Source of the DNA: Candidatus Hydrogenedentota bacterium
GTDB taxonomy: Bacteria > Hydrogenedentota > Hydrogenedentia > Hydrogenedentales > SLHB01
Assembly: GCA_034408725.1 (NCBI GenBank)
Contig: JAWXCN010000129.1
Location: forward strand, 1 to 36,256
Length of the DNA stretch: 36,256 bases
Direction of reading: 5' to 3'
Shown: positions 2,215-36,256 of the stretch, one piece after another
Numbering within the stretch: position 1 is the stretch's first letter
Layout of the letters: every line of letters begins with the position of its first letter
Program-made: the position numbers and the translations under genes
Notes under the pieces: generated by a model
Told to the model about the DNA's origin: nothing
Seen by the model: the letters and a program-made list of their open reading frames with translations, nothing else
Database searches by the model: none

Positions 2215-2267
2215 AACGCTGTGTAATGGGTGGAAGCCGTCCGGCCAACGAGAAAGGAATTCATCGC

Positions 2268-18177: not shown

Positions 18178-20076
18178 GTGGCAACACTAACGAACCCATC
18201 TGGCTCTGCTGGTGCAGACGGGGGGTACAAGACTTTTGGGCAAAGCCTGGTTGCCCGTGGAATTGTAACCCAGAAGCAACTGGACGAAGCTGTTCACAAG
18301 CAACAGACTTCGATGAGCCACCGCAAGTTGGGCGAAATCCTCGTCCGCCTTGGTTACATCAGCAAAAGTCATATAGCCGAGGGTCTTGCCCATCAATTGG
18401 GGATTCCGATCATTCGGCTTTCGGACCGTGAAATTCCCGAACGCATCCGCAACCTCGTTGATCCCGCGATTGCGACGCTGTACAAGGTCGTCCCGATTGG
18501 TGAGGAGAACGGCGATCTGCTTTTGGCGACAGCCGATCCGACCAACGTGCAAACGATTGACAATCTCGAACGTTTACTGGATCGCCGGGTAGTGCCCCAG
18601 TTGACCACCCCAGAAGAGATTACGGTATCGCTCGCGAAATACTACAACCTGAACGAGAAGACGGTCGAGTCCATGCTGTCTACCGTCAGCAGCGCGAGCA
18701 CCCTGAGCACCTTGAGCACCATGTCCAACGTCAGTTCGCTGGCGTCCTCAATGAGCAGCATGGGCAGCAACGTGTCCGGCAGCGAAATGAGCATGAGCAG
18801 CATTTCGATGGACAGCATGGATTTGGACCAGAGCATATCCGTGCCGAAGTCCGCGGGCGGCGTTGTTACGGACGACGACGAGGACAGCGACAGCCCGGTC
18901 GTGCGCTACATCAATCATCTCGTGCTCGAAGCTTTCCGGTTGCGCGCGAGCGATATTCACGTGGAGCCCGGCAAGCGGGACGTAAAGGTGCGGTACCGCA
19001 TTGATGGTCTTCTCCATTTGATGCCGACACCGCCCAAACGCGCGCAACCCTCGATCATTTCGCGCCTGAAAATCATGTCGGGCATGGACATCTCCGAGCG
19101 GCGCATCCCGCAGGACGGTCGCATCAAGATTGCGCTTGGCGGCAAGATGGTGGACTTGCGCGTGAGCTGTCTTCCGGCAGTTCATGGTGAAAGCATGGTC
19201 ATGCGAATCCTGGACAAGAGTGCTTTGCTGCTTGGCCTTGGCCAATTGGGATTTGCGCCAGACGACCAAAAGAATTGGGAAGACCTGCTCAGCCAGGCGA
19301 CGGGCGTGGTGCTCGTGACGGGCCCGACAGGTTCTGGTAAGACCACGACGCTCTATGCTTCGTTGCACCAGCTCAACCAGCCCGACGCCAAGCTGATCAC
19401 CGTGGAAGACCCCGTAGAATACCAGTTGCGCGGCATCAACCAGGTGCAGATCAACCACGATATTGGCTGGAACTTTTCGCGCGCGTTGCGCGCTATTTTC
19501 CGCCAGGACCCTGACATTGTGATGGTCGGTGAAATTCGTGACAAGGAAACGGCGGAGATCGCCATCAAGGCGGCGCTGACGGGTCACCTGGTGTTCTCTA
19601 CGTTGCACACCAACGACGCGCCCAGCGCGATTATCCGTCTGGTGGACATTGGCATCAAACCGTTCCTGGTGGCGTCTGGCGTGCGCGCGGTATTGGCGCA
19701 ACGCCTGGTGCGGACGATTTGCACGGCATGCAAAGAAGTGTACAAGCCGGTGGACCTCGAAAAAGATCGGCTGGGGCTCAAAGTAGACTGGAACAAAGCC
19801 GAAGTGTTTCATGGCCGCGGTTGCGACAACTGCAACAACACCGGTTATTCCGGGCGTGTCGGTGTTTATGAGTTGATGCTGGTCACCGATGAACTGCGGC
19901 ACATGATCATGGACGGCGCGCCGTCAGGTCCCTTGCGCCGGCACGCGCGCCTTGGCGGCATGACGACCATGCGCGATGACGCGTGGCGCAAGGCATTGAA
20001 CGGAATCACGACGGTCGAGGAAATCAACCGGGTAACGGCTATCAACGAGCCGCTGGATCGCACGGCTACCGCGTAG
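18178..20076 (+). CDS. pilB: PilB/GspE-family extension ATPase 1 with Ser/Met-rich linker
   Basis: MshEN-like N-terminus ([13 protein letters not shown]), [47 protein letters not shown]; directly upstream of pilT. Confidence 0.88.
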
Positions 20077-20099
20077 CCGGAGCCGAAGGAGTTTCGCGA

Positions 20100-21218
20100 A
20101 TGGCGTATGAGATGGTGAGCTTGCTGCGGATGCTAATCGACCGCGACGGTTCCGACCTGCATCTCGCGGTCGAGAACCCGCCCGTGGGCCGAGTTCATGG
20201 GCATCTTCAGTATTTCGGCGAGGACCCGCTCTCTCCGGACGACACCGAGCGCCTCATGAAATCCATCGCTTCCGTGGATAACCAGCAGGAACTTCAGGAA
20301 GTTGGCGGGTCCGATTTTGGGTTTGCGTTTGAAGACATCGCGCGGTTCCGCGTTTCGATTTTCAAGCAGAAAGGATTTGTGGGTCTGGTGCTGCGCCTCA
20401 TTCCGCGCAAGATTCTGACCTTCGACGAAATCGGTCTGCCCAAGAGCCTGCAACCGATCATCACCCAGCCGCGCGGAATGATCCTGGTCACGGGCCCGAC
20501 GGGTTCGGGAAAAAGCACCAGCCTTGCGACCATGATCGACTGGGTCAACACAAATTTCGACCATCACATCATTACCATTGAAGACCCGGTTGAATATTAC
20601 CACTCGCACAAGCGCAGCATCATCACCCAGCGCGAAGTCGGCGTGGACGTGCCGACGTTCGCCGAGGCGTTGCGCCGCGCGCTGCGCCAGGACCCCGACA
20701 TTATTCTGGTCGGTGAAATGCGAGACCTGGAAACGATCAGCGCGGCGGTGACGGCGGCGGAAACCGGCCACCTGGTGTTTGGCACGCTGCACACCACGGG
20801 CGCGGTGCGCACCATCGACCGTCTAGTCGACGCGTTTCCGACGAACCAGCAGGAGCAGATTCGCACGCAGCTTGCGGGTAACCTCAAGGCGATTATCTCG
20901 CAAAACCTGGTTCCGCGGAAGAGCGGCTTTGGCCGTGTAGCCGCGTTCGAAATCATGATCACGACCTCCGCCATTCAGAACCTGATTCGCGAGAACAAGT
21001 CGTACCGCATTACCTCCGCCATTCAGACCGGTCACAAGTACGGCATGAACCTGCTCGATGAGCATCTGCTGGCGTTGTTCCGCAAGGGCATCATCAAATA
21101 CGAAGACGCGCTCGCGAAATGCCAGATGCCGGACGATTTCGAGGCGAACGCCCGCGCGTTGGCGCCTGATGGCGAGAAGATACCCGAAGCCAAAAAAGTA
21201 CAATCGGCGATGCACTGA
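20100..21218 (+). CDS. pilT: Type IV pilus retraction ATPase PilT
   Basis: RBS AAGGAG 20086-20091 before ATG 20100; [61 protein letters not shown] (PilT AIRNLIRE motif); no tetracysteine motif. Confidence 0.95.
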
Positions 21219-21239
21219 ACGAAAGCTGTTTAATTCTCA

Positions 21240-22979
21240 ATGGCAACTCTGAAAGAAAGGGCCCTCGGCGACATTCTGGTCGACCAGGGCGTCATCAGCC
21301 CGCTTGAACTCGATGAAGCGCTGCAACGCCAGCGTCTCACGGGCGACATGCTGGGCCGGGTCCTCGTGCGCATGGGCCTGTGCGAGGAGCAGGACGTTAT
21401 CGACGCGCTTGGCATGCAGGCCGGCATGGAGAAGGTGGACGTCACCAAGCTCAAGGTGTCCGACGATATCATCCGCAAGATCGGCCCCGACGTCGCCAAG
21501 TTTTATACCGTGGTGCCCATTCGCGAAAGAGACGGCAAGCTCGTCGTTGCCATGGCCGATCCGCTCAAACTCGACATATTGGACACGATATCCCAGCTTA
21601 CGGGCCAGGAAGTCGTTGGCGCGATCAGCAATCCACACGATGTCGCCGTTTTCATTAAAAACAATTACGCTTTCGAGAGCGAAAACATCGAATCTACGCT
21701 AAAAGACCTCATTGAGCGCCACGGCGACGCCGCGCTCACGCTCGAAGAGCTTGGGCAGCAGGAAATCGTCGGCGACGTCGACAACCTTGTACAGTTGGCG
21801 CAGGAGCCGGAGGTCATCAAGATCGTCAACCTCGTGTTGCTCGACGCCGTGACCAAGCGCGCGTCCGACATTCACTTCGAGGTCTACGAAGCAGATTTTC
21901 GTATTCGTATCCGCATTGACGGCGTGCTGCATGAGATTACGAGTCCGCCTAAGGCGCTTGCGCTCGCGCTGACGTGCCGCGTGAAAATCATGTGCAGCAT
22001 GGACATTGGTGAACGCCGGTTGCCGCAGGACGCGCGCATCGAGTTGAAGATCGGCGACTCCGAAGTGGATATTCGCGTCGCCACGCTTCCGACCTTGTTC
22101 GGTGAAAGCATCGTGATGCGTATTCTGGACCGGACGGCGGTCAAGATTGATATCGAGAAGCTCGGTTTCGAGCCCGTGCAAGTCAAGCAAATCCGGAACT
22201 GCATTGCCCGTCCCAACGGAATTTTTCTTGTGACGGGCCCGACCGGTTCCGGCAAGACGACGACCCTGTACGCCTGTCTCAACGAGTTGAACGAAGTCGG
22301 GGTGAAGATTATCACCACCGAAGACCCGGTCGAATTGAAGATGGACCGCATTGTCCAGGTCCAGGTGCGCGAAGAAGTGGGCCTTACGTTTGCCGCGTGC
22401 CTCCGGTCTATTCTGCGGCAGGACCCCGACATCGTCATGGTCGGTGAAATCCGCGATCTCGAGACCGCGCAGATCGCAATCGAAAGTTCGTTGACCGGTC
22501 ACCTCGTGCTCAGCACGCTGCACACGAACAGCGCGTCAGAAACCATCACGCGCCTGCTCGACATGGAAATTGAACCGTTCCTGATCACGTCCTCACTGAC
22601 CGCCGTGCTCGCACAACGCCTCGTCCGCGTTGTGTGCAGGCACTGCCGCACGTCGTATAAACCGGACGAAGAGGAAATGGAGCTGCTTGGCCTCCCGGAC
22701 GAATACCGCACTGCGACCAATCTGAAGTTTTGGAAGGCGGAGGGTTGCGCCGCGTGCGATTTCATCGGATACATGGGCCGCGTTGGGTTATTTGAGCTGC
22801 TGGTCGTGGACGAGAACCTCTGCGACCTCATTAACCAGCGCGCGATGGCCTTCGAAATTCGCAAGTATTCCCGCAAGACGGGAATGCGCACGCTTCGTGA
22901 AGAAGGCATCATCAAGTGTTTGAAAGGCGTGACCACGACGACCGAAGTGCTCGCGCACACCGACAAGTACGAAGACTAA
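21240..22979 (+). CDS. pilB: PilB/GspE-family extension ATPase 2
   Basis: MshEN-like N-terminus (RALGDILVDQGVI), [47 protein letters not shown]. Confidence 0.9.
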   Translation: MATLKERALGDILVDQGVISPLELDEALQRQRLTGDMLGRVLVRMGLCEEQDVIDALGMQAGMEKVDVTKLKVSDDIIRKIGPDVAKFYTVVPIRERDGKLVVAMADPLKLDILDTISQLTGQEVVGAISNPHDVAVFIKNNYAFESENIESTLKDLIERHGDAALTLEELGQQEIVGDVDNLVQLAQEPEVIKIVNLVLLDAVTKRASDIHFEVYEADFRIRIRIDGVLHEITSPPKALALALTCRVKIMCSMDIGERRLPQDARIELKIGDSEVDIRVATLPTLFGESIVMRILDRTAVKIDIEKLGFEPVQVKQIRNCIARPNGIFLVTGPTGSGKTTTLYACLNELNEVGVKIITTEDPVELKMDRIVQVQVREEVGLTFAACLRSILRQDPDIVMVGEIRDLETAQIAIESSLTGHLVLSTLHTNSASETITRLLDMEIEPFLITSSLTAVLAQRLVRVVCRHCRTSYKPDEEEMELLGLPDEYRTATNLKFWKAEGCAACDFIGYMGRVGLFELLVVDENLCDLINQRAMAFEIRKYSRKTGMRTLREEGIIKCLKGVTTTTEVLAHTDKYED

Positions 22980-23005
22980 CGAAGCTGTGAACAGGAGACG
23001 GCACA

Positions 23006-24244
23006 GTGGCCAAGTACGCATATAAAGCGATGAACCGGGACGGCAAGGAAGTGTTCGGCGTCATTGATTCCGAGACGAACGCGCTGGCGATCAACGACAT
23101 CAAGAACCTGGGCTTGTTTCCGACCGTCGTGCGCGAGGCCACGAAGAGCGACGAGCGCCGCGCGCGCCGCTCCAAGAAGGGCCCGGGCGAATTCTATATG
23201 GGCGGGATCAAGACCAAACATCTGGTCGTGATGACGCGCCAGCTTTCGACGCTGATTGACGCTGGCCTTCCGCTGTTGCGCAGCATCAACATATTGATTG
23301 CGCAACAGAAGGCCTCGAAGCTCAAAGACGTGCTCCGCGAGGTCGCCGGAGACATTCAGGCCGGCTCGACATTCTCCGAAGCCTTGTCGAAACACACGAA
23401 ATACTTCGATCGCCTGTACGTGAACATGGTGCGCGCGGGCGAAGTTGGCGGTATGCTCGAAGTCGTGCTGCAACGTCTCTCCATCTTCATGGAACGCCGC
23501 CAGGCGCTGAAACGCCGCGTAAAAGGCGCGATGATTTATCCCATCGCGGTGCTCTTGATCGCCGGCGGCATTGTATGGTTTCTGCTGACGTACATCGTCC
23601 CCGAGTTCGCGCAGGTGTTCGCGGACTTCGACGCGCAACTGCCCGCGATGACGTTGATGCTCATCGACATTGGAGATTTCTGCCGGTTCAAATGGTGGAT
23701 TGTCGTTTTGTCGATAACGACCAGCATTAACGTGTTGCGGATTCTCGGAAAATTCAAGACCACAAAACGGATCATGGACCGCGTGTGGCTGAAGCTTCCG
23801 CTCATCGGCGACCTGGTGACGAAAGTCGCCGTGGCGCGTTTCGCGCGCACGCTCGGCACCCTGATCACTTCCGGCGTGCCGATTCTGCAATCGCTGAAAA
23901 TCACGAAAGAGACCATCGGCAACGAAGTGATTGAAAACGCGATCATGAAAGTACACGACAGCATCAAGGAAGGCGACACCATCGCCGCGCCATTAGACGA
24001 GTCAAAGGTGTTTCCCGCGATGGTCGTGAACATGATCGACGTCGGCGAGGAAACAGGAAGCCTCGATACGATGTTGTTGAAAGTGGCGGACATTTACGAC
24101 GCCGAAGTCGAGGCGGCGGTCGAAGCCATGTTGCGCCTCATGGAACCCATCATCATCGTGGTGCTGGGCGGCATTATCGGATTTATCGTTATTTCGCTGT
24201 ACCTGCCAATCTTTTCGCTGGCAGACGCGATTAGTGGCCAGTAA
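23006..24244 (+). CDS. pilC: Type IV pilus inner-membrane platform protein PilC
   Basis: RBS AGGAG; TRQLSTLIDAGLPL, YVNMVRAGEVGGML, RFARTLGTLITSGVPIL, VGEETGSLD, MEPIIIV. Confidence 0.93.
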   Translation: MAKYAYKAMNRDGKEVFGVIDSETNALAINDIKNLGLFPTVVREATKSDERRARRSKKGPGEFYMGGIKTKHLVVMTRQLSTLIDAGLPLLRSINILIAQQKASKLKDVLREVAGDIQAGSTFSEALSKHTKYFDRLYVNMVRAGEVGGMLEVVLQRLSIFMERRQALKRRVKGAMIYPIAVLLIAGGIVWFLLTYIVPEFAQVFADFDAQLPAMTLMLIDIGDFCRFKWWIVVLSITTSINVLRILGKFKTTKRIMDRVWLKLPLIGDLVTKVAVARFARTLGTLITSGVPILQSLKITKETIGNEVIENAIMKVHDSIKEGDTIAAPLDESKVFPAMVVNMIDVGEETGSLDTMLLKVADIYDAEVEAAVEAMLRLMEPIIIVVLGGIIGFIVISLYLPIFSLADAISGQ

Positions 24245-24296: not shown

Positions 24297-25085
24297 ATGA
24301 AACCGAAGTCAGGATTTACGCTGGTTGAATTGCTGGTGGTCATAGCGATCATCGCGATCCTCGCCGGTATCGTAATTCCGAACGTGCCGAAGTACATCAA
24401 TAAAGCCCGCGCGACGCGCGCGTTCGCGGAAATCAAGGGCATCGATCTCGCCACGACGAAGATGCTGACCGACGTGAACCGCACCGATTTCAAAAGCGGC
24501 TTTTTCGATGCCTGGCCCGCGGGCGGGAACCTGGTCGATCAGTTGGAGATGTACCAGACCACGTTTTACCTGCTGCTGCGCAAAGGCAAGTATGCCGACT
24601 CCGACGTCGAATGGAACAGCGGCATAGCGTTGAACCCCGAGGTCAAACGCAAACTTGGCGACAGTTACATGGACCTTCAGAAGGACCCGTGGGGCAATCT
24701 CTACTATGTCGTTCCGGGTCCGTTTAACTACCCGGAATACCGCAATACCGACGGTCAATACAGCGTACAGTTCCGCATATATCAGCCGGACCTTTCCGTG
24801 CCCGGCGGCGTGACGAGCGACGTGAGCTGGAACGTCGACGGCGTCACACTCGTTACCGATCCCGACGATCCGAACGCCGAACAGTTCAATGTCGGCTACC
24901 CCGCGTCGCGCAAACAGATCACGTATGTCTGGTCGACCGGCAAGAACCGCAGATCGAACCAGCAGTTTGACGATGGGTACGACCCCAGCGTCGATGCGGC
25001 GGAAGTCGGCCTTGATTTCAAGGGCGGCGGCGACGACATCAACAATTGGGACGGCGATTCGAGCTGGGTGACGTTTTACAACTAA
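24297..25085 (+). CDS. Type IV pilin, probable major subunit, with GspG-like C-terminal motifs
   Basis: RBS AGGAG 24283-24287; short leader MKPKSG|FTLVELLVVIAIIAILA; KDPWGNLY, VWSTGKN, GGGDDINNW. Confidence 0.8.
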   Translation: MKPKSGFTLVELLVVIAIIAILAGIVIPNVPKYINKARATRAFAEIKGIDLATTKMLTDVNRTDFKSGFFDAWPAGGNLVDQLEMYQTTFYLLLRKGKYADSDVEWNSGIALNPEVKRKLGDSYMDLQKDPWGNLYYVVPGPFNYPEYRNTDGQYSVQFRIYQPDLSVPGGVTSDVSWNVDGVTLVTDPDDPNAEQFNVGYPASRKQITYVWSTGKNRRSNQQFDDGYDPSVDAAEVGLDFKGGGDDINNWDGDSSWVTFYN

Positions 25086-25151
25086 ATCCGCATGCGCTCC
25101 GTGCCCGGTGCGGCGCGCGGCATGACAAGTGGTAAGAGACGAATTGACACT

Positions 25152-26024
25152 ATGAACACGCGGCGTAATAAGACGCTCGGTTATACCTTAACCGAACTGC
25201 TCGTCTCGCTTGCGATCATCGCGACGGTTTCCGGTCTGGCGCTTCCCGCGATCATCAAGATCGGCGGATTCCTGAGCAGCGGGAACGGTGAAGCCGCGCG
25301 CGAATTGTATGGCGTGTTACGCGCCGCGCGCGTGTACTCGATCACGTTTCGCGTGGACACCGCGGTCGTCTATACCGTGACTGGCCACAAAGACTCGATG
25401 GACGGCGAATGGTCGTATGTGTTGGACGGTTTCGGAATGGCGCGCCGCGCGAACCGGGATGAACTGCGCTCACTCGCTTTCTCGGGCGCTTCGGAAGCTG
25501 AAATCAATTCCGCGTTCATTCCCGTGCAAACCTTCGAAGGGCGGTTCCAGCGAATGCCGCGGGGCACCTGCGTCACTGGCCACGCCGATGCGCAGGTCGG
25601 GCTGAATGCCGATGGCACCGTCTTTGAGTTGCCGCCGCAACTTCCCAGCGATTTCCGGCTCGACGTGCCCGAAAAAGGCATGATCGAGGTGTATCTGTAT
25701 CAGTATGACGACGATATTGAGACGTGGCAGGGCGTGCCATACGTCAGCAATCCGAACGAACCTGATCTCACGCGGTTGCCGATGCACGTCGTGGATTCCC
25801 AGGTCCACAGTTACCCCGCGCACGTGTTCACCGCCAACGGCGACATGCTCGCTTCCGACGATTCGCCCGCGGCGCGCTTTGTCTTGAACGTTGGCCCCGC
25901 GCCGGACGCGCCGTTGGACAATCGATTCACGATATTGCCCGAAGAGGTGGGCGGCCCGGTAATGGCCGCGCCGGTCCGGATTGAGTTGTTCCGGACGACG
26001 GGGCGCGTGAAGATTACATCCTAG
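25152..26024 (+). CDS. Minor pilin, FimT/GspH-like
   Basis: G|YTLTELLVSLAIIA; AARELYGVLRAARVYSI helix; FTANG and C-terminal IELFRTTGRVKI. Start at 25152 preferred for the short leader. Confidence 0.8.
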   Translation: MNTRRNKTLGYTLTELLVSLAIIATVSGLALPAIIKIGGFLSSGNGEAARELYGVLRAARVYSITFRVDTAVVYTVTGHKDSMDGEWSYVLDGFGMARRANRDELRSLAFSGASEAEINSAFIPVQTFEGRFQRMPRGTCVTGHADAQVGLNADGTVFELPPQLPSDFRLDVPEKGMIEVYLYQYDDDIETWQGVPYVSNPNEPDLTRLPMHVVDSQVHSYPAHVFTANGDMLASDDSPAARFVLNVGPAPDAPLDNRFTILPEEVGGPVMAAPVRIELFRTTGRVKITS

Positions 26025-26036
26025 GAGTATCAAGCA

Positions 26037-26471
26037 GTGTTTATGCAGTTACGAAAAAAAGAAGGGTTCTCCCCGGTTGAAGTATTGATCGCGATGGCCA
26101 TTCTCGCCATCGGCATCATCGCCGTGGTGCGCCTGTTTCCCTCTGGTCTTGCATTTTCCCGCATCGCCCAGGAACGGTCCATCGCGGCCGAGCTTGCGCA
26201 GAACAATCTGTCGCGCATGCGCATGGCCGGCGCGAGCAACCTGCTCGGCGTGGCCCAGGCGGGCGCGCTGTACGGGTTCAACTCGGCGGCCAGCTCCTAT
26301 GGGCTCGGCATTGGCGGTCGCAACGACGTGGGCAATATTGTCGGCGGATACGCATCTTCCGTTCGCCGCGTCAACGGCGCGGGTGAACAGGCGTTGGTGC
26401 GCGTTACCTTCACCGTGGACATGCCCGACGGCCGGCGCGAAAATTTCGTGACCTATCTCACGGACTATTAA
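26037..26471 (+). CDS. Minor pilin, PilV/GspI-like
   Basis: RBS AGGAG; G|FSPVEVLIAMAILAIGIIAVVRLFP; LVRVTFTV strand. Confidence 0.8.
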   Translation: MFMQLRKKEGFSPVEVLIAMAILAIGIIAVVRLFPSGLAFSRIAQERSIAAELAQNNLSRMRMAGASNLLGVAQAGALYGFNSAASSYGLGIGGRNDVGNIVGGYASSVRRVNGAGEQALVRVTFTVDMPDGRRENFVTYLTDY

Positions 26472-26492
26472 TTCGTGCAGACGGCGCGCCCC

Positions 26493-28043
26493 ATGAAGAC
26501 ACGAATACAAGACGGGTTCACGCTCACCGAGCTGCTCGTCGCTACGGCGATCTTCACCATTTTGATGTCGGCGATTGCCGCGCTGTTTGTCTCGAGCCTT
26601 CACGCCGTCCGCGCGGGCTACCAGTCACAGGAGGCGTTTGAAACTGCGCGCGGCGCGTTCAACGTCATCGAGCGCGATCTCACGACCGTTTTCACCTCGC
26701 GCGATTTCGGCCAGCATTACCAGTTCTACGGCAACGAATACGGCATGACGATGGTCGGCCTTATCCGGTCGCGCGACGGTTCCGGCCGCGAATACTCGCG
26801 CATTGGCCGCATCACCTATGTCATCTATCCCGTTGTTATTGCGCGCTGGGACACAGCGGCCAACCAGCACAACTTTTTTGTCACTGAACCTTTCGCATAC
26901 GAATACGCGCGCCGCATGGGCATCACCGACGTGGGCCTTTCCAACGATGGGCTGTACAAAACGCGCGGCGTCCGGTTCACCGGCTATACCGAGTCATCCG
27001 ATGTCGGTGATTCGGAAATTTGCGTCGCGGCGCTTGTGCGCTACGTCGAGCCCGGCGTATCCGATCTGGACACGTTTCCCTTCGAGTGGAATGAGCTCGC
27101 GGATGAATATCTGGCCAATCCCGAATATCCGCCCTCGGGCAGCGGCCTTACCATTCGCGAACACCTCGATGATTCACTCGAAATAGCTTCCGTCAATCCT
27201 TCCACGGACACCCGCGTGCTCGCGCGGCTTGACAATGCGCGTGAACAGATGTTCGCGGCAAAAAAACGCGACCTCTGGCTGCGCATGCTTTCGTGCCAGG
27301 AGTTCTGGATTCCGCAATTGAACACGGGCCTCGCCGTGCTTCCCAATCCGTGGGGCCGCCTGGACCCGAATGACGCCAGTAGCACGATTGAACACTGTTG
27401 GCTATTGGGCGGCCCCAGCGCGCCCAACGGCGCAGTCATTGATCCCCGCGACTTCGTGGTCGCGGAAACGCTTGGCGTACACACGCCTCAGGGTGATTTC
27501 GGATTTCCCATGCGTCCTTATCGCGTGAACCCGCCGTTCGTGCCGTTTTTTGAATTCGGACGGGTGAACGCCGACACCGTGCCCGATCTCATGCCGATGT
27601 GGGGCGCGAACCGTTTCGCATACCTGAGTATCCCGGACGGCGTTGACAACGATAACGACGGGACAATCGACGAGAACGACGAGATATTCACGGTTGATGG
27701 CCTTGACAACGACGGGGACGGGCTCTTCGACGAAGTCGACGAGCGCGTCGTCGCGCCGCGCATCGATCAGCTCAATCCGAACCAGTTGATCAATATTCTT
27801 GCGATTGACGGGCTGGACAACGATTACGACGGCGTAATCGACGAAGCCGGTGAGACGGTGGAAAACAACCTCGCCTTCGGATCGCCGTTGCTGCCGCGGT
27901 TGCCGGAAGCGGTGATGGTGCGCCTGCCGATGGTGTATCCGCCGTCGCATTCCGGGGCGCCCGTGTTCGAGCGCAATTTGGAACAGTTAATCGACGTGCC
28001 GACCGCGTACACGCGGTCGAAACTGGCCTACGAAGGTCCCTAA
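26493..28043 (+). CDS. Minor pilin, PilW/GspJ-like, with three DGxDNDxDG repeats
   Basis: G|FTLTELLVATAIF; ARGAFNVIERDL; RLPEAVMVRL near the C-terminus; DGVDNDNDGTIDE, DGLDNDGDGLFDE, DGLDNDYDGVIDE. Start 26493 or 26475. Confidence 0.8.
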   Translation: MKTRIQDGFTLTELLVATAIFTILMSAIAALFVSSLHAVRAGYQSQEAFETARGAFNVIERDLTTVFTSRDFGQHYQFYGNEYGMTMVGLIRSRDGSGREYSRIGRITYVIYPVVIARWDTAANQHNFFVTEPFAYEYARRMGITDVGLSNDGLYKTRGVRFTGYTESSDVGDSEICVAALVRYVEPGVSDLDTFPFEWNELADEYLANPEYPPSGSGLTIREHLDDSLEIASVNPSTDTRVLARLDNAREQMFAAKKRDLWLRMLSCQEFWIPQLNTGLAVLPNPWGRLDPNDASSTIEHCWLLGGPSAPNGAVIDPRDFVVAETLGVHTPQGDFGFPMRPYRVNPPFVPFFEFGRVNADTVPDLMPMWGANRFAYLSIPDGVDNDNDGTIDENDEIFTVDGLDNDGDGLFDEVDERVVAPRIDQLNPNQLINILAIDGLDNDYDGVIDEAGETVENNLAFGSPLLPRLPEAVMVRLPMVYPPSHSGAPVFERNLEQLIDVPTAYTRSKLAYEGP

Positions 28044-28171
28044 CAGCTCGGTGGTTTTTGGGCTGGTCCGCGCGCGGCAAACGCGCGGGGCCGGATAGCG
28101 AGGCTGGCGTTACGGGGCGCCAGCCCCCGGAGATTGCTCCGGTGAAACTGGGCACAGAGCAAGGATTGCGA

Positions 28172-31100
28172 ATGAGCGAGCGGTGCACACCCGCGCTGGA
28201 CGGCCGTAGCCGTGGTCCGCGCCAGATTGTCCATGAAGAGCGCGGGGCCGCGTTGATTATCGCGGTGGCGATCTTCGTCGTACTGCTGTTTATCGGCCTC
28301 ACGTTTTATTCGCAGGCCCGGCTCGAACTGCGCACCGCCACGAACAACCAGGACAGTTTCCGCACCGATATGATCAACAGCGCGGGCACGGCCATTGCCG
28401 TTGCCCAGCTTCGTCTCGACAAACGCCAACACCCGACCGCGACCTCGCTCGACCATGGGTGGAATACCTTGTTTAACGGCGCATGGCTCGCGGGAAAACC
28501 CTGGGCCTTCCGGCAGGACAGCCACGGCATCCGCGTGCTCGATCAGACCTGGACCAGTTGGGCGGGGATCGATCCGCGCAAGCGCGTGCCCTACATTGAC
28601 TACTGGGCCGACGTAAAGGTCCTCGAAGCCGAGCTCGCGCGCGTCACGTACAATTCACTCAATGGGGTGGATCTGGACGGCAACGGCGTCATTGAACCCG
28701 ACGAAGTCGATCAAGGTCTTGGCAGCGCGCTTGCCGCTATCAAGAACCCGCTTTGGGTGCCGCGCTACCAGTTTGACCCGAACGACCGCGACAACTCCGG
28801 CCTCGACCTGCTGCTCGACGCGGACTGGCAAGGGTCGATTGATTGGCCCGTGCAGTACGCCTACGATTTCTCGAACTATAACGTCGCGTTCAACACGCCG
28901 ACAGCCATTCCCAACGGCGACTACGATCCGTTTGACGCGGCATGGCCCGCGCGCGTCACTACGCCGCAACAGAAGATCAACGCTTTCGCCGATGTCGACA
29001 GCGACAACGACGGCCTGCGCGACGCAATGTGGCTGCCCATTGCCATTGAAATTTTCTTCGGCGGCATAGACCGCAACGCGGATGGCAGGGTTGGCGCGGG
29101 CTACATCGAGATCGACATCGACAACGACGGCGACGTTGACGTCGTGAACGAGGGCAGCGACGACGAAGGCGGCGACGGCATCGACAATGATCTCGATGGC
29201 ATCGTCGACGAGCAGGACGAAGTCGCGCTGTTTGTTTACTGGGGCGGCAACGACGGCAAAGACAACGATGGCGACCACGATCCCGACGGCCTGCGCAGCG
29301 ACGGCGTCGATAGCGATAACGATGGCGCGATTGACGAAGGCAACGGCGGGAACGAGGGCATCGACGAACCCGACGAACAGCGCGTCTTCCTTACCGCGCC
29401 GATCATAGCCGATTCTTACTGGGGCGGAAACGACGGCGCTGACAACAACGGTTCTGGCTCGGATAACATTGATAACGACGGCGATGGACTGGTGGACGAA
29501 GCCGGCGAGGGAATCGATGAACCAGACGAACAACGCATCTTCCTGACGGCTGACGACCGGATCGACAACGACGGCGACGTCGATTTTGACGATCCGGGCG
29601 AAAGCATTCCGTTGCTCAACGACTTCATCGTGCGCATCAACCTGCGGACGTTAAACGAGTTTATCGGCCCGTTCGCGGCGCAATTTACGTCCGACACGGA
29701 TACGCGATTGCAGGTGACGAATCCCGGCGACCCCTTCGGCGTCTCAGTCGACCGGCTCGACAACGATTTCACCCAGATCATCAACGACGTTCACGGCCAC
29801 GCGTACTACGCGCCCGACGTGCCGGAATTGGTTGATCCGGGCGATCCCACTTCCGGCATCAGCCTTCCCTGGCTCAATTTCCTTGCCGCCGGCCAGCAGA
29901 ACCGCGCGCGCTCGTATAGCACCATCCACACGGGTTTCTATCCGGTTTCGGGCGCGATTGGAAGTATCCCCGGCCTTGCGCCCGTGCTCACGGCATCTGG
30001 CGAATCCGTCTGCGAAATTGCCGGGCGCGTCGCGATCCACATCGTTGATGAAGCTTCCAAAGTGAATCTGAACAACGCTGGCGCAATTGCGACCGTCGTT
30101 CCGCAGGAAAATCCGGGCGCGTCCGCCACCGACGGCTTTATTTACAGCCAACACCGCGACCAGTTCACCTTCGCGCGCAACGAAGGCAGCGGTTCGGGCG
30201 AATACGAAACGCGCGTGCTCCCGATCATCGGCATCGAGCGCGCGCTCGACATCGCCATGACCCGCGACGGCGAACACAAAGGTCCTGACGCCGGCAGTGG
30301 CAAGCCGCAGAATTTCCCGCTGCTCAATCCGCTCGATGACAACGACAGCGACGATGACGGGACGATTGACAACCCCGCCGAAGCCGGTTACGCCTATGAC
30401 CTTTACTTCCCCGGATTTGGCCGCGCGGACGACAACGCCAACGCGCTGCAACTGCAATTTGACGGCCTCGATAACGACGGCGACGGCATGTACTACGTCT
30501 ACGACGGGGTTGATAACGACGGCGATACCTTTACCGACGAACCAGACGAAGCCAGTTTCGGAATCGACGAACCCTTCGAGGGGATCGACGAACCCGCGGA
30601 ACTTCAGTCGTTCCGGCCGCTGCGCCACCGCATCGCAGAACTCGATGGCGTGGACAACGACGGTGACGGCGCGATCGACGAAATTGGCGAACTCGGCGAC
30701 CGCCTGTACCACACCGGCGACGAAATGCAGGGCGCGCTCGCGCTTGCGTCGAACCAGACCGGCGTCGGTTTCGTGGCCCCCCTGCGCAGTATCGTCACGG
30801 TGCAATCCACCGATCCGAATGCACGCTACCAGCGCTACGTCCGCGACGGGAACGGCGATTTTGCGCGCAACATTCCGCCGGACACCGCGCCCGTCACCGG
30901 CATGAAACTTGACCTTAACTATGCGCTGGCCAGCAGCATCGCGCCCGCGCTGCGCGAAGACTGGTCGTATCCCGCGACCAACGAACTGCTGCTGACGGAA
31001 GCGTTCTATCCACCGGACCTTGGCAACGCCGCGCTCAGCGGAAACCCGTACCTGATCGCGACGTCCAACGCCGCGAGCTTTGCGACCAACGAGGACGATT

Positions 31101-34100
31101 ACGAAGCACAGTTTGTGCTTGAAGCCGCTTACGTCGCGGGCCTGCGCCACGAATCTGTCACGCGCGTGGATACGCCTATTGGCGTGTTCGACGCGCGTCA
31201 CACCAATTTCACGAACCCGAATCCGCCCGGCAAGTATCTCGAAGCCGACGCCGGCCTCCGCGCATACCAGCTCGCGCTGAACATCACCGATGCGCGCGAT
31301 ACTGATCGCGTCCGGAACACGGAGACGTACAGACAGGGCGACGACTGGTGGAGCGCGTTGGTGCGCGATCCCGCGCTTCCGATTACGGTTCCAACGCCAA
31401 TTGTCCGCGAAATCACCTATGAATTCGCCGGCGCGGAAAGCATCCGCATCAACGAACTCATGGTCCGCGCCGTGCGCCGTGTCGAAGCGGAATCGAATTA
31501 CGAGAACACTACCCACCCGGAAAACAACACAGAATTAATGAGCGACGGTGTTGCGCTGGACTTCGATGTTGTCTCGGATACGAATTCACTCAGCACGACT
31601 GATCCAACCCAAGGTTGGGTGTTGTTCCCGGAAACAGTTCCCGTGGGACCCGGCATAACATCGGGTTTCATCACCGAAACCGCCGCAGTGGACACGGAAG
31701 AGAATGTGCTTCAATTCCTGATCGGTCCGAGCGCGCAATTGCCGCCGGGCCGCTACTACCTCATGGTCAATACCATCGGAGAAGATGGCCTGCCCAGTGT
31801 CGAAGACGCGACGGACATTGAATACCGCGTCAAATATGTCCGCACGGTAGCCGGAGAACCGGACATCCTCGCCGATCTGGCAACATTGGATCCGTTCGGT
31901 GCGAACTTGATTGCAACGACTGTTCAAGCCGATCCCGCGATCGGTTCCAGGAATGGCGCGAACGCGTTCCCCGCGACCGTTGGCGATGAAAGTGGTTTGG
32001 TGTTTCTTCCCACCGTGGATTTGCGCGTCGATCCTGCAACATTGCCTCTTGGCGCGGCGGCCTACGCAGGCATACCCGATGAAGCAGGACTTCAAAACGA
32101 GGCGTTCACGGTAATCATACCGCCCTACGCCGCGACGACTACCGAGCAATACTATCTTTGCGTGGCGATTTCAGCGAATGCATCCGCGCTCGATCCGATT
32201 GCGATCAATTTTCTTGATTTCAGCCAGGAACCCGACCACGAATGGATCGAAATCGTCAACGTCTCCGAATCGCGAAGCGCTATCGATCTTAGCGGGTGGC
32301 TGCTTGAAGTGGGTGGCGGCACAAGCGATCTGAGCAATACGATCTTTACGATTCCCAATGGCACGTCCATTGCCCCGAACGGATCGCTGCTGCTTACGGC
32401 AAACAAGTACGACCAAAATACGGTGTTCTTCGCGGACAACGCGGATGCCACGGCGCTCTTCTCCAAAAACGGCATCAGCATGACCAACGTGCCTCTTGAT
32501 CCGATTGCAAATCCCACCGTGATCGGGGCGGGAACCTCGGAAGCGCCGATTCCCCGATATGCCGCGCGAGGCGAGGCGGGTTTTGCAAGCACCATCGGAC
32601 TAGGCACCAATACGTGGACCGGCCAGTGGGGCGTACCTGTTGGATCGGCAGCGGGCGCCGAAAGCATTTTCCAGCGCGCAACTACGGCCGTGGATTTCGT
32701 GGATCGGGACGGCGACGGAGCAGCGGAAGTTGGCACGGTCGAAGACGCGGTGGTCTCGACTTTTGAAGGCGCTACTCCCGCGGGAGACAAGCCGTGGGAC
32801 CGCATCGTTCAACTGATACCGCCCTTGGCGCATCCGCTTAACCTGCGCAATTCCGCGTTACCGCTTCCCGGTACGACCGCGGGAGATCGGTTGGACGTTG
32901 TCGCCGAGATGGTGTTGCGCGGCGGAATCCTTCCCAATAATCCCGATTTCGATCTCGTGGACAACGACAACGACAACGCCGAGCTCATGCGCGATTCCGT
33001 GGATAACAATGGCAATCGCAATATGTATGTGTTCGACGGCCTCGACAATGATGGCGATGGTACGACCGACGACGCCGACGAATGGAATTGGGTAGACAAT
33101 GATGGTATCGACAATGAACCTGACGGCCTCACAGATGAAGGCTCGGACGGCATCGACAACGATGGCGATTCTCTGATCGACGAACTTGATGAACTCGAGT
33201 TAATAGACGAGCTTGATGAAGGCGTCGATGAAGGCAATCCCTTCAGCGCATTGGGTGTGCCCAAGCCGGGCAGCTTTGACCGATTCAGCCCAGTTTTTGT
33301 CAACGCGACAGAGCCGGGCTACGTGCGCGGCGTTGCGTCGTATCCAGAATGGAAGAATTTTGTCGAGCGCCGCTTCTATCCCGGCGACAATGTCCGCGTG
33401 ACGTTGTACCGCGGGTTCCCGGAAGAGGCGTATGCGGTTGATCGCGTGACGTACAACCAGAACGACGTCGAGAACCGCGCGCCGGACGACGTGCGCCGCC
33501 TCGACGAAGTGATCACGACCGCTCCTCCGGACTATCTCACCCGGTTCCGCATGCTGGATGGAAACACCGGCGGCGCGATTTCACGCGCGTGGCCCGAGAA
33601 CACGATGGGCCTGGACTTTTATCGTTCGCTCGAACGGAAGCATCCGCTTTATGCCGGCGACCGTTTTGGCCTTGCGAACCGGTGGACCGCCACCGACGGC
33701 AATTACGACGATTGGGGCCACGGCACGAACCGCTGGTTCTTTGACAATGTAACCGCCGGCTCGTCGAGCATGCTCAGCGAGCTGCAATTCGACGACGTTA
33801 TCAACGGGACCACGGTGGCGGTGTCTGGCGCGCTGTACTTTGGCCACGGTCTAAGCGGATCGCCGTTGCGCGCAAACTATTTCCAGCGCGTGCTCGAAGA
33901 CCCGCGCCTGCAACATCCGTCCGGGCCGGACCAGCCATTGCGCCTCGTGTCCAACGACGCGCCAGTAACGGAAGACCCGCTCGTCGGCGACAACACCACG
34001 CTGCTTTCCCGCGCCCGCGTGCGCGACGCGAATTTCCGGTCGCCGGGAGATCTGATGACCGTGCCGCACCTCACGCTAACGCGATCGTACCAGCTTGGCA

Positions 34101-35917
34101 ACTACGATCTGTTGGGCCGCGAAGCGTTGCAAGGGTCGAGCGTGTTGCCCGAAGACTTCATCGATGGCGGGACGCCGTCCTACGTCAAGGGCGCGTCCAT
34201 CGGCACGGACTATCCCGAGGATCTCCGCGCGCTGCTCGATATCGCGTCGCAAGACTCGATCTCGCTCAACGTCGGCCAGGCGAATTTTTACCCGTTGTAC
34301 CCCTACGTCCAGCACCTTACCGCCGACAACACGCTCGTGGAATGGGAAGCGTCGTCCAACGATTTCCGCGGGCCACGTGCTTGGTCGCCCGTGTTTTTGA
34401 CTTCCCTTGATCCAAACGGCAGCGAACCCGAAAGCGCGGACTTCACCGGCACGCAGACGATCACGATTTCGCAGACGGGCACGCCGCAGTTCCCGCACTT
34501 GCAACTGCCGGATGGCACGCCGATCGCGAATTATCCGATGCAGATGGCGTTCATTTATCGCAATACCGATCTCAGCCGCGTGCCGCCCTTTGGCAACACG
34601 CAGTGGCTGCTTCAGGAAAACGCCACCGGCACCAGCGACGCCTCCGTGCGCTGGCCGCTTGAACGCCGCGCGATGATGTACGTGTCGTCCAACCCCGACG
34701 GGTTTGATCCGAACCTTGTCTCGCATCAGCAATTACCGCCGGTGGGGATTAACGATATTCATCCCTCCGAAGCGCTCTTCGTATGGGACGGCGCGGACGG
34801 TCTGCCGAACGGCGAGTACGACGTCTATGTCGTGACGATGCCCGACACGTCGAACCTGATCGAATCCACGCGCCGGTTCGACGCAAACCGCGAAGACTGG
34901 TTGCCCGAAGCGCTCGAACGCGCGCGACGTCAATTGCCCATCGACATCATGTTCCTCACGGACAAGGACGGCGACCGGAAAGTCTGGATGGATCAGCCAG
35001 GCAACGCGCAGGCCGGGTTGCCCGACACCGTCGAGCTTGGGTTCAACTCACAGGATGCGGCTATCCCGCGCGAGAAGTATCCGCTCAAGGCGGGGCTTGA
35101 ACCTTCCTCCGACGGCATCGTGCATTACGGCGTCGTCAAAGTGGAGAACAACTACCTCGCGATGTTCGCGCGCAACTGGGCGGTGCCCGGCGTATCCAAC
35201 GTGAACGCCGTGTCCCGCGTCGTGCTCATGACGCGCGACCGTACGCCGGGCCGGATCAATGTGAACACCGCGATCACGCAACCGATTGCCGAAAATACAA
35301 CGGTGACGCCGGACTTTCACGCGTTCAATCCGATGGCCGGACTCATCGGCATGATGGCGGAATACGCGCCGGGAGCGCTGGACACCGGCACGTTCATCCC
35401 CACCCCGTGGGGCGACGCCGATAATATTGGCACCGGACCGCCGTACACATTCGTGCTCGGCCAGTGGTACGCGCGCGCGATGCAGCGCTCCAACCAACTC
35501 GTGCTCAGCCGCGGCCAACGTTTCGTTGACTACAACAACAACGGCGTTATCGACACGCTCGATCCCCAGGTGCGCTACGACGGCCGCTACCTGCTTTCGG
35601 CGGGCGAACTCGTAGTCAGCGGCGACGAGTCCGCGTTCGAGTCACGGCCCCTTGTGACCCTGCCCGACATTTTGCTCCAGTACGACGTGGGTGTGGTCAC
35701 TCCGAACGGCAAGGCGCAGGCCTTCGACGAGTTGAAAGAGCGTTACGCCCGCATGGCGAACAACGTCACTACGGTGTCCGACACCTTCGAGATATTCGTC
35801 ACCGCGCAAAGCGGCAGCGCGTTCGACGCGAACCGCGACGGAATTATCAATTGGCGCGACGACAGCGAGTTCCTGGTCACCGGCGAAAAACGTTCCCGCA
35901 CGGTGTATGAACGGTAG
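28172..35917 (+). CDS. Giant (~2581 aa) PilX/GspK-like pilin with acidic Ca-binding-type repeats and lamin-tail-like motifs
   Basis: RBS AAGGA 28161-28165 before ATG 28172; EERG|AALIIAVAIFVVLLFIGLTF (no Glu5); GspK-like motifs IVDEASKVNLNNA, GRINVNTA, TTVSDTFEI; EWIEIVN..IDLSGW..IAPNGSLLL; 20+ DxDxDG-type loops. Confidence 0.85.
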   Translation: MSERCTPALDGRSRGPRQIVHEERGAALIIAVAIFVVLLFIGLTFYSQARLELRTATNNQDSFRTDMINSAGTAIAVAQLRLDKRQHPTATSLDHGWNTLFNGAWLAGKPWAFRQDSHGIRVLDQTWTSWAGIDPRKRVPYIDYWADVKVLEAELARVTYNSLNGVDLDGNGVIEPDEVDQGLGSALAAIKNPLWVPRYQFDPNDRDNSGLDLLLDADWQGSIDWPVQYAYDFSNYNVAFNTPTAIPNGDYDPFDAAWPARVTTPQQKINAFADVDSDNDGLRDAMWLPIAIEIFFGGIDRNADGRVGAGYIEIDIDNDGDVDVVNEGSDDEGGDGIDNDLDGIVDEQDEVALFVYWGGNDGKDNDGDHDPDGLRSDGVDSDNDGAIDEGNGGNEGIDEPDEQRVFLTAPIIADSYWGGNDGADNNGSGSDNIDNDGDGLVDEAGEGIDEPDEQRIFLTADDRIDNDGDVDFDDPGESIPLLNDFIVRINLRTLNEFIGPFAAQFTSDTDTRLQVTNPGDPFGVSVDRLDNDFTQIINDVHGHAYYAPDVPELVDPGDPTSGISLPWLNFLAAGQQNRARSYSTIHTGFYPVSGAIGSIPGLAPVLTASGESVCEIAGRVAIHIVDEASKVNLNNAGAIATVVPQENPGASATDGFIYSQHRDQFTFARNEGSGSGEYETRVLPIIGIERALDIAMTRDGEHKGPDAGSGKPQNFPLLNPLDDNDSDDDGTIDNPAEAGYAYDLYFPGFGRADDNANALQLQFDGLDNDGDGMYYVYDGVDNDGDTFTDEPDEASFGIDEPFEGIDEPAELQSFRPLRHRIAELDGVDNDGDGAIDEIGELGDRLYHTGDEMQGALALASNQTGVGFVAPLRSIVTVQSTDPNARYQRYVRDGNGDFARNIPPDTAPVTGMKLDLNYALASSIAPALREDWSYPATNELLLTEAFYPPDLGNAALSGNPYLIATSNAASFATNEDDYEAQFVLEAAYVAGLRHESVTRVDTPIGVFDARHTNFTNPNPPGKYLEADAGLRAYQLALNITDARDTDRVRNTETYRQGDDWWSALVRDPALPITVPTPIVREITYEFAGAESIRINELMVRAVRRVEAESNYENTTHPENNTELMSDGVALDFDVVSDTNSLSTTDPTQGWVLFPETVPVGPGITSGFITETAAVDTEENVLQFLIGPSAQLPPGRYYLMVNTIGEDGLPSVEDATDIEYRVKYVRTVAGEPDILADLATLDPFGANLIATTVQADPAIGSRNGANAFPATVGDESGLVFLPTVDLRVDPATLPLGAAAYAGIPDEAGLQNEAFTVIIPPYAATTTEQYYLCVAISANASALDPIAINFLDFSQEPDHEWIEIVNVSESRSAIDLSGWLLEVGGGTSDLSNTIFTIPNGTSIAPNGSLLLTANKYDQNTVFFADNADATALFSKNGISMTNVPLDPIANPTVIGAGTSEAPIPRYAARGEAGFASTIGLGTNTWTGQWGVPVGSAAGAESIFQRATTAVDFVDRDGDGAAEVGTVEDAVVSTFEGATPAGDKPWDRIVQLIPPLAHPLNLRNSALPLPGTTAGDRLDVVAEMVLRGGILPNNPDFDLVDNDNDNAELMRDSVDNNGNRNMYVFDGLDNDGDGTTDDADEWNWVDNDGIDNEPDGLTDEGSDGIDNDGDSLIDELDELELIDELDEGVDEGNPFSALGVPKPGSFDRFSPVFVNATEPGYVRGVASYPEWKNFVERRFYPGDNVRVTLYRGFPEEAYAVDRVTYNQNDVENRAPDDVRRLDEVITTAPPDYLTRFRMLDGNTGGAISRAWPENTMGLDFYRSLERKHPLYAGDRFGLANRWTATDGNYDDWGHGTNRWFFDNVTAGSSSMLSELQFDDVINGTTVAVSGALYFGHGLSGSPLRANYFQRVLEDPRLQHPSGPDQPLRLVSNDAPVTEDPLVGDNTTLLSRARVRDANFRSPGDLMTVPHLTLTRSYQLGNYDLLGREALQGSSVLPEDFIDGGTPSYVKGASIGTDYPEDLRALLDIASQDSISLNVGQANFYPLYPYVQHLTADNTLVEWEASSNDFRGPRAWSPVFLTSLDPNGSEPESADFTGTQTITISQTGTPQFPHLQLPDGTPIANYPMQMAFIYRNTDLSRVPPFGNTQWLLQENATGTSDASVRWPLERRAMMYVSSNPDGFDPNLVSHQQLPPVGINDIHPSEALFVWDGADGLPNGEYDVYVVTMPDTSNLIESTRRFDANREDWLPEALERARRQLPIDIMFLTDKDGDRKVWMDQPGNAQAGLPDTVELGFNSQDAAIPREKYPLKAGLEPSSDGIVHYGVVKVENNYLAMFARNWAVPGVSNVNAVSRVVLMTRDRTPGRINVNTAITQPIAENTTVTPDFHAFNPMAGLIGMMAEYAPGALDTGTFIPTPWGDADNIGTGPPYTFVLGQWYARAMQRSNQLVLSRGQRFVDYNNNGVIDTLDPQVRYDGRYLLSAGELVVSGDESAFESRPLVTLPDILLQYDVGVVTPNGKAQAFDELKERYARMANNVTTVSDTFEIFVTAQSGSAFDANRDGIINWRDDSEFLVTGEKRSRTVYER
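29237..29551 (+). repeat. Intragenic tandem duplication (180-nt offset) within the giant pilin
   Basis: YWGGNDG(K/A)DN...EGIDEPDEQR(V/I)FLTA at 29237-29398 and 29417-29551. Confidence 0.8.
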
Positions 35918-36109: not shown

Positions 36110-36256
36110 ATGCGCCCACTCTATAAAACGGCCTTCCTGTTCGCGGTGGCTATTACCCTTGCTGGTTTCGCCTCCGCGCAGGAGCGGTTTGTTGCGTGTC
36201 TTGGCGGAGCGAACTGCCCCGCTGGCGACGGCAACTCTCCCTATACGAATTTACAG
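36110..36256 (+). CDS. Secreted protein, N-terminus only (3'-truncated)
   Basis: Not in the ORF track. RBS GAGGAG 36094-36099; MRPLYKTAFLFAVAITLAGFASA|QERFVACLGGANCPAGDGNSPYTNLQ. Clear Sec signal peptide; GDG..PYTNLQ resembles the start of beta-helix proteins (weak). Confidence 0.65.
   Translation, partial: MRPLYKTAFLFAVAITLAGFASAQERFVACLGGANCPAGDGNSPYTNLQ

Follow-up and report, generated by a model that had tools for sequence, protein, structure and literature searches.

A giant reading frame behind a row of pilin genes

The stretch of DNA analysed here, called the window throughout (36,256 nucleotides of contig JAWXCN010000129.1 from a Candidatus Hydrogenedentota bacterium), carries close to its end a very large plus-strand gene, hereafter the giant. 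Its reading frame is open from 28058 to 35917 and, translated from the ATG at 28172, which has an AAGGA 8 nt on its 5' side, yields 2581 aa. This is 7.0 times the length of the window's own 367-aa GspK and bears out the roughly sevenfold enlargement that an initial annotation had described. With moderate confidence, we interpret the product as a minor pilin of the GspK/PilX class, forming the cap or tip of a retractile type IV pilus-like machine that is encoded by a second filament cluster downstream of the type II secretion system (T2SS) of the window. The protein contains 10.7% Asp, only three Cys, and 11 DxDxDG motifs that fall into four groups. Every string that the initial annotation had quoted from it was found again at its place (Table 1).

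The giant is the last of five pilin-like genes, and the ordinary GspK of the T2SS lies 12 kb upstream. Directly 5' of the giant stand a 144-aa pilin that is PilV/GspI-like and a 522-aa pilin that is GspJ/Verru_Chthon C-like (both by NCBIfam models), so that the giant occupies the position expected of a K-type pilin.

Homology to GspK

The first residues of the giant resemble those of a GspK. Positions 1–78 of the NCBIfam GspK model NF037980 match residues 23–99 (E 7.6e-7). For a more sensitive comparison, an alignment of 98 members of the giant's family was compared by hhalign with an alignment of 97 GspKs in 35 sliding windows of 140 aa each. The family alignment derives from 138 relatives, 120 of them listed (116 of the listed ≥1900 aa; 98 with both termini aligned), and the GspK alignment from those of the 120 listed relatives of the window's GspK that measure 320–400 aa. 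Residues 15–113 align with GspK 3–120 at a probability of 96.5% (P 1e-9), and the match takes in a shared SLDxxW motif that was missing from the earlier list (TSLDHGW in the giant, DSLDEVW in GspK).

The N-terminus has the form of a prepilin, G25/AALIIAVAIF (the slash marks the predicted cleavage point), with a leader that ends in Gly and a hydrophobic alpha-1 helix without Glu at +5. Gly occupies position −1 in every family N-terminus that reaches the site, and Glu at +5 occurs in none of these 102, a count to be read with the fact that 99 were selected by a pattern fixing +5 as I/V, the remaining three having M/L. The block of helix and SLDxxW motif (residues 26–111) measures 86 aa in all 98 aligned members, and a helix of 65 residues (22–86) is modelled by AlphaFold2 (AF2) with a predicted local distance difference test score (pLDDT) of about 80 in its model of residues 1–1085. 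These comparisons support a GspK-like N-terminus, including a predicted site of the GspK type, G/AAL(I/V)(I/V) without Glu at +5, at which a prepilin peptidase would cut between G25 and A26.

Two further regions match GspK in the expected order. Residues 607–641 align with GspK 112–147 (probability 65–71%, P 4–6e-5), and residues 2300–2420 with GspK 212–300 (81–85%, P 0.7–1.2e-5). In the null comparison with a reversed GspK profile, the lowest P among 36 windows was 0.0076 and the next 0.059. The FRSPGDL block (1930–1990) is borderline, aligning with the KNAPMNSVEELLLVRG part of GspK (176–238) at 32% and P 4.9e-4. Four windows across 1691–2040 gave P 0.0035–0.012, and 26 others P ≥ 0.033. Aligned in small blocks, residues 2340–2581 match GspK 242–348 at 73.5%. 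The proposal that conserved GspK motifs stay in order across the giant thus holds for the order itself and for three strong colinear matches to the expected GspK parts, with FRSPGDL at the margin; the remaining motifs are weak or at chance level, and LALNITDARDTD, LPIIGIERALDI and the C-terminal strands find no support individually. The "helix-hairpin-helix-like" LPIIGIERALDI appears only in a low-probability alternative alignment (4.6%).

Searches within the source genome gave a similar picture. A hidden Markov model (HMM) of residues 596–650, run over 29,304 six-frame open reading frames (ORFs) of this genome, retrieved a 338-aa GspK-like paralogue on contig C213 (E 4.7e-6; next match 0.73), and an HMM of the N-terminal block placed three GspK-like genes among its five best non-self matches. 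An HMM of residues 2340–2581 ranked the window's GspK first of the non-self ORFs, at only E 0.16. In direct BLASTP comparison the C213 paralogue aligns with the giant three times in order: 13–73 with 21–81 (E 4e-6), 116–170 with 617–677 (E 0.005) and 216–238 with 2362–2384 (E 2.3). As a lead only, the nearest named clusters of the ESM Atlas for the C-terminal region carry T2SSK, T2SSK_1st or HHH_3 (scores 0.75–0.85). Separately, the C-terminal fragment P0008 scores 0.92–0.94 against three unnamed clusters of the same atlas (299–414 aa, commonest in Planctomycetota), which may be relatives outside the phylum.

Architecture: probable inserted modules between conserved blocks

In GspK, the segments SLDEVW...IDDEYGKLNLN (SLDEVWAYGVPF...IMQCSIDDEYGKLNLN) are contiguous, whereas in the giant the two halves lie about 510 aa apart. 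Among the 98 members the spacer in between, insertion 1, ranges from 247 to 581 aa, and its flanking blocks are fixed at 86 and 16 aa. The natural 1303-aa member P0220 has only about 40 aa at this place and keeps both termini. Variable spacer, fixed flanks and a member lacking most of the spacer together make residues 112–601 a well-supported insertion. More generally, core blocks keep constant lengths (86, 16 and about 41 aa), and the stretches between them vary by hundreds of residues. P0220 also retains the N-terminal helix, the IVDE strand, the lamin-tail domain, the KNANFSTVGELLDVP motif, the G-K-ININ motif and the terminal hairpin. As the only complete short member found, it provides structural studies with a naturally minimal form.

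Since blocks in GspK order run from residue 15 to about 2420, the extra mass lies between blocks and not behind a complete pilin module. If the C-terminal match to GspK is true homology, which we consider rather likely, the ~1,700 additional residues between the IVDE strand and GRINVNTA are insertions as well. That GspK-like blocks would extend to the very last residue can be said only with low confidence. Of the earlier view that the giant consists of nested insertions instead of carrying an appended adhesin, insertion 1 is thus firmly established and the extra mass does lie between GspK-like blocks; the remainder depends on the C-terminal homology.

The lamin-tail domain is the sole Pfam domain in the giant (PF00932, residues 1339–1439, E 9.4e-11, 42.5 bits against a gathering threshold of 34.3) and is precomputed on many of the relatives. 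The match names one inserted domain and not the whole protein. Another of the inserted domains, at residues 2027–2357, is a jelly roll resembling a carbohydrate-binding module (CBM). The loop DANRDGIINWRDD in the terminal hairpin gave EF-hand_5 at E 0.004 and Dockerin_1 at E 0.0075, both under the Pfam cut-off. The best conserved blocks of the family are residues 1091–1110 and 1735–1850 (31442–31501 and 33374–33721; top-residue share 0.81–0.85), reading IRINELMVRAVRRVEAE and DFYRSLERKHPLY..RFG..NRW.ATDGNYDDW, for which Pfam gave no match. We take them, so far unconfirmed, to resemble the strands at the edge of a lamin-tail domain. That IRINELMVR (1091) and FYPGD...VDRVTY...DFYRSLERK (1735–1820) form the halves of another such domain, split in two, stays a guess, as Pfam returned nothing for these pieces at E up to 10.

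The AF2 model of residues 1860–2581, which includes the GRINVNTA region, has a pLDDT of 70.3 and a predicted template modelling score (pTM) of 0.63. It ends in a long helix (2511–2532) and a hairpin (strands 2538–2550 and 2567–2580, pLDDT 78–92), the turn of which is the EF-hand/dockerin-like loop. The model of residues 1–1085 is poor beyond the helix 22–86, with most of the chain as far as residue 912 under pLDDT 50. A Foldseek search with the model of 1860–2581 gave no match at E ≤ 0.001. In VIA-align the rows for this model all concerned the jelly roll and contained no GspK chain, the list being filled by the jelly roll; generally, the fold-search lists were taken up by the CBM-like domain or the long helix. 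The models of fragments brought no match to GspK.

Table 1 Positions of the giant, its parts and selected neighbouring genes in the window
Feature	Position	Strand	Basis
Giant GspK/PilX-like minor pilin gene	28172..35917	+	single open frame, ATG with AAGGA upstream, 138 relatives
Leader, residues 1–25, Gly-ended; predicted prepilin-peptidase site G25/A26	28172..28246	+	sequence, NF037980 match
Alpha-1 helix and SLDxxW block, residues 26–111	28247..28504	+	AF2 helix, hhalign to GspK 3–120
Insertion 1, residues 112–601, variable, acidic DxDxDG repeats	28505..29974	+	length spread, P0220, flanks
Strand block IVDEASKVNLN, residues 602–637 (GspK IxDExxKxNLN strand)	29975..30082	+	hhalign, HMM, BLASTP
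Residues 638–1084: acidic repeats, helices, LALNITDARDTD	30083..31423	+	family-conserved, without significant GspK match
Residues 1085–1860: module holding the lamin-tail domain	31424..33751	+	PF00932 at residues 1339–1439, nt 32186–32488
FRSPGDL block, residues 1941–1982, possible first helix-hairpin-helix of GspK alpha domain	33992..34117	+	hhalign, borderline
CBM-like beta jelly roll, residues 2027–2357	34250..35242	+	
GRINVNTA ... GLIGM block, residues 2358–2425 (GspK second helix-hairpin-helix)	35243..35446	+	hhalign
Terminal helix and beta hairpin, residues 2511–2581, EF-hand/dockerin-like loop DANRDGIINWRDD	35702..35914	+	AF2
Motifs, N-terminal part	G25/AALII; IVDEASKVNLNNA at residue 624 (nt 30041); LPIIGIERALDI at 683; LALNITDARDTD at 1034		
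Motifs, C-terminal part	FRSPGDL at residue 1955; GRINVNTA at 2360; VTTVSDTFEIF at 2532		
Canonical GspK of the adjacent T2SS, 367 aa, yardstick	14603..15706	+	NF037980 153.4 bits (cut-off 130), PF21687 E 2.6e-21
Two PilB-like ATPases, one PilT-like ATPase, platform protein	18178..24244	+	T2SSE, T2SSF hits (Pfam)
PilB-like ATPase	18178..20076	+	
PilT-like ATPase	19983..21218	+	
Second PilB-like ATPase	21240..22979	+	
Platform protein	23006..24244	+	
Four prepilin-like genes (262, 310, 144, 522 aa) directly upstream of the giant	24297..28043	+	N_methyl PF07963 in 4 of 4

Family spread and assembly support

Of 135 genomes of the phylum, which record labels identify as Hydrogenedentota, 108 contain a match to a profile of the C-terminal region. 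The matches include 75 of the 86 genomes of good quality and span 55 of 66 genera. Most of the 108 genomes hold a single giant locus, with frames of about 2000–3300 aa. Fourteen of 21 named loci bear the label Candidatus Hydrogenedentota, Hydrogenedentes or Hydrogenedentales, and seven carry other metagenome-assembled-genome labels. The 98 full-length members measure 2027–3431 aa (median 2627.5); all 138 relatives span 1419–4517 aa.

The gene sequence recurs piecewise, with no differences, in contigs of three other microbial-mat runs of 2018, which may stem from one campaign; none of these contigs spans the gene. No RNA run was listed among the datasets that hold it.

Gene neighbourhood

A complete T2SS lies on the plus strand of the window, with gspC, D, E, F and G, three more pseudopilins, GspK, an L-like gene and M (Pfam, NCBIfam). 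Downstream of it follows the second type IV filament cluster, which comprises three ATPases, a platform protein and four prepilins, and then the giant. The three secretion ATPases are consecutive (18178–22979), two being PilB-like with MshEN domains and one a shorter PilT-like protein. Enlargement in this cluster extends beyond the K-type subunit: the second pilin has 310 aa, and the J-like pilin (26475–28043), at 522 aa, is inflated too and has an acidic repeat in common with the giant (NF033662, three stretches, E 2.3e-6). On the other side of the T2SS, two large ORFs 5' of it (2–4661) bear TIG and CFI-box-CTERM (NF041770) domains and may encode surface proteins or cargo tied to the secretion cluster.

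The last ~150 bases of the window (36110–36256) encode the signal peptide with which a large beta-helix/TIG protein begins; over 51 aa this protein shares 41% identity with the 2218-aa gene found behind the giant in another genome of this genus. In the source genome the locus continues on contig C68 with an FGE-sulfatase/PEGA protein and a PilM fusion, so that ~6 kb of the beta-helix/TIG gene are unassembled. All three relatives examined show the giant followed by a secreted beta-helix(/TIG) protein of 1033–2214 aa, a PilM fusion and a secretin frame; two of the three also have the FGE-sulfatase/PEGA protein in the locus. The secretin frame (1082–1114 aa) lies 11–15 kb downstream of the giant in each (G092:C17:1590965, G069:C1:6574760, G082:C1:300584) and is distinct from the T2SS secretin (879–904 aa) located upstream.

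Elsewhere, the source genome holds one Peptidase_A24 prepilin peptidase gene (contig C201) and seven secretin matches. Additional GspK-like or K-type N-termini occur on contigs C213, C176, C228 and C206, in 338- and 333-aa proteins, a 139-aa frame and an 819-aa frame, the last of which is matched by the N-terminal block HMM of the giant (E 0.0027). Several type IV filament systems are present in this organism.

Alternative explanations

Several results weigh against a GspK-class pilin that extends over the whole length of the giant. T2SSK, T2SSK_1st, HHH_3 and PilX_N of Pfam are absent from the giant searched in pieces at E up to 10, and the first three were found in none of 45 C-terminal fragments of relatives (E ≤ 0.5). 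NF037980 reaches 29 bits, over its first 78 positions only, against a cut-off of 130, and the curated GspK thresholds (NF037980 at 130 bits, PF21687, PF03934) are all missed. In the hhalign comparison the C-terminal strands alone gave P 0.012–0.02, inside the null range, and LALNITDARDTD gave P 0.53, chance level; moreover, the GspK alignment comes from the same phylum (effective number of sequences, Neff, about 3.4–4.6), which limits both its sensitivity and its independence. BLASTP against the window's GspK returned only GRINVNTA (7 of 8, E 1.4), which is not above chance, and helix-hairpin-helix motifs of this type also occur outside GspK, which may make the C-terminal signal generic in part. 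A profile of the last ~280 residues retrieved 208 proteins from 1.84 billion representatives, 195 of them below 1e-10, and hence no tail of ordinary GspKs. Among solved structures, a single-sequence search returned no match to the giant, the C-terminal profile only chance rows (E ≥ 0.14, searched to E ≤ 10), and the profile of a 33-row alignment of residues 1–1085 with full-length relatives (A4) none at E ≤ 1. Neither the C-terminal strands taken singly nor the Pfam searches give support to the earlier idea that the chain returns at its very end to complete the pilin sheet, which we keep as a possible arrangement.

The giant could instead be a modular pilin with an appended adhesin, in which pilin character is confined to the N-terminal helix and, at most, the first strands, and the rest consists of independent domains, the GRINVNTA region and the hairpin belonging to an unrelated helix-hairpin-helix/Ca-loop domain outside the pilin core. 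We regard this as unlikely. In its favour, besides the missing T2SSK-type matches and the chance-level strands at the C-terminus, the last 722 aa fold on their own in the AF2 model, the final hairpin being well modelled in the absence of the N-terminus, and pilins with grafted modules are described as widespread (PMC8179133). Such an arrangement would, however, call for a complete pilin sheet after alpha-1, and none is apparent; in P0220 the IVDE strand comes only about 55 aa after the helix and is succeeded by acidic repeats, and the N-terminal AF2 model shows helices and low confidence past residue 86. Furthermore, the C-terminal region aligns, in the expected order, with the C-terminal half of GspK (probability 73–85%), and the very end of the protein ranks with the best conserved blocks of fixed length. 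A protein that is not a pilin, namely a surface or periplasmic giant adhesin held by an uncleaved signal anchor and sharing the pilus operon as a PilY1-like accessory or cargo, appears improbable to us. It would suit the size of about 280 kDa, far above any pilin in the cited survey passages (860 aa, PMC8179133), the adhesin-like domains (lamin-tail, CBM-like, acidic repeats) and an N-terminal cleavage that is a prediction; against it, the N-terminus is GspK-specific past the hydrophobic helix (SLDxxW, IxDExxKxNLN strand), Gly at −1 is invariant, the gene comes after I-like and J-like pilins, where a K gene belongs, and a separate large secreted beta-helix/TIG protein already fills the next position. 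That the frame is a chimera joined from repeats in a metagenome bin is hardly credible. The source genome does consist of 280 contigs, the acidic motifs are repeated within the gene, and in other runs contigs have repeats connected by short "joints" whose shorter side spans just 21 letters; but frames of 2000–3400 aa with their blocks in the same order recur in 108 of the phylum's 135 genomes and in 98 database proteins of full length, and the contigs of three other runs match the window piecewise with no other letters.

Comparison with known systems

Seen beside GspK, the giant has the same Gly-ended leader and hydrophobic alpha-1 without Glu5. SLDxxW, the IxDExxKxNLN strand and G(R)xNxNTA ... 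G(L/M)PG succeed one another as they do in GspK, and the giant closes a pilin row after I-like and J-like genes. It differs in being seven times longer, in lacking any Pfam T2SSK-type match and falling far below the NF037980 cut-off, in at least four very large stretches between the shared blocks, and in belonging to a cluster that has a PilT-like ATPase and is separate from a T2SS with its own GspK. GspK itself is described, in the survey parts used here, as a pilin with a domain inserted in its sheet and a proposed tip cap together with GspI and GspJ (PMC8179133).

The minor-pilin row of a machine with both extension and retraction ATPases is reminiscent of PilX and the type IVa pili, and PilX_N (PF14341) is precomputed on some family members. 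In that system a complex of minor pilins and PilY1 primes the filament and presents a tip adhesin (PMC7541494), roles which the giant would share. The difference is that pilin and adhesin-like domains stand in one polypeptide in the giant; Pfam found no PilY1-type domain in it, and its pilin-type N-terminus sets it apart from PilY1. The calcium switch of PilY1 offers an analogy only.

Modular pilins such as PilB and PilC of Streptococcus sanguinis and CofB carry adhesion modules that are expected at the tip, the most extreme one named in the survey passages having 860 residues, against 2581 in the giant (PMC8179133, whose Dataset S1 may list larger ones). In these proteins the module is grafted by a short linker behind a complete small pilin module, whereas the modules of the giant lie between pilin-family blocks. 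ComZ of Thermus thermophilus is another minor pilin whose fold takes up a large domain; it has a single insertion and a total length of a few hundred residues.

A further partial resemblance is to TIGR02600 (Verru_Chthon cassette protein A, 1296 positions), which we take from its family description to be a large protein beside proteins B, C and D with prepilin-type N-termini. Its positions 1–63 match the first ~60 residues of the giant (E 1.9e-5, 22.8 bits) and positions 1193–1253 the last ~60 (E 0.013, 13.4 bits); both scores are far below the cut-off of 332.3, the middle is unmatched and the giant is twice as long. Neighbours of the giant weakly match cassette proteins B, C and D (NCBIfam). 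Because the curated thresholds of both GspK and TIGR02600 are missed, we file the giant as a variant of the K-type minor pilins and as a member of neither family. A literature search found no paper under the name Verru_Chthon cassette and none on the giant, papers on Hydrogenedentes and pili being judged by title.

Proposed mechanism and significance

Taking the giant as a GspK/PilX-class minor pilin, it would work most like a tip subunit of that class fused with the adhesin it presents. A prepilin peptidase would cut after Gly25, and the 60-residue hydrophobic and amphipathic alpha-1 would join the I-like (144 aa) and J-like (522 aa) pilins and prime the filament, which would leave the giant at the distal tip. 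The pieces of GspK would be kept in order, namely alpha-1 with SLDxxW, the IxDExxKxNLN strand, probably two helix-hairpin-helix motifs, and the last hairpin. Between them, acidic and probably Ca-binding DxDxDG repeats, the lamin-tail domain and the CBM-like jelly roll would be exposed at the tip, serving as an adhesin that grips glycans or surfaces, and the bound target would then be pulled by the PilT-like ATPase. Of this picture, the gene context, the homology of N-terminus and strand block, insertion 1, the lamin-tail and CBM-like domains and the family's spread through the phylum are observed, and processing, tip location, ligand binding and a return of the C-terminus into the sheet are inferred. 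In its fullest form, which we put forward tentatively and hold to be somewhat doubtful, the tip of a retractile pilus of Hydrogenedentota would be a single ~280 kDa polypeptide, a GspK frame opened at at least four loops and loaded with adhesin modules, whose last hairpin closes the sheet 2,500 residues past its first strand. If so, these would be the largest pilins known, and they would need either an unusually wide or flexible passage through the outer membrane, namely the cluster's own secretin of roughly 1,100 residues, or assembly of the tip outside the secretin.

Tip subunits determine what a type IV filament binds and how its assembly begins. Known K/X-class subunits have 200–400 residues, compared with 2,000–3,400 in this family, which most genomes of a candidate phylum keep as one locus each, with glycan-binding-like, lamin-tail and acidic repeat domains placed between pieces of a GspK-like frame. 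The family thereby raises the questions of the extent to which nested domains can be accommodated in a pilin fold, of the way such a tip gets through a secretin or around it, and of what the uncultured Hydrogenedentota grasp with it, and it provides a functional lead for the uncharacterised large proteins of the "cassette protein A" type encoded beside pilin genes.

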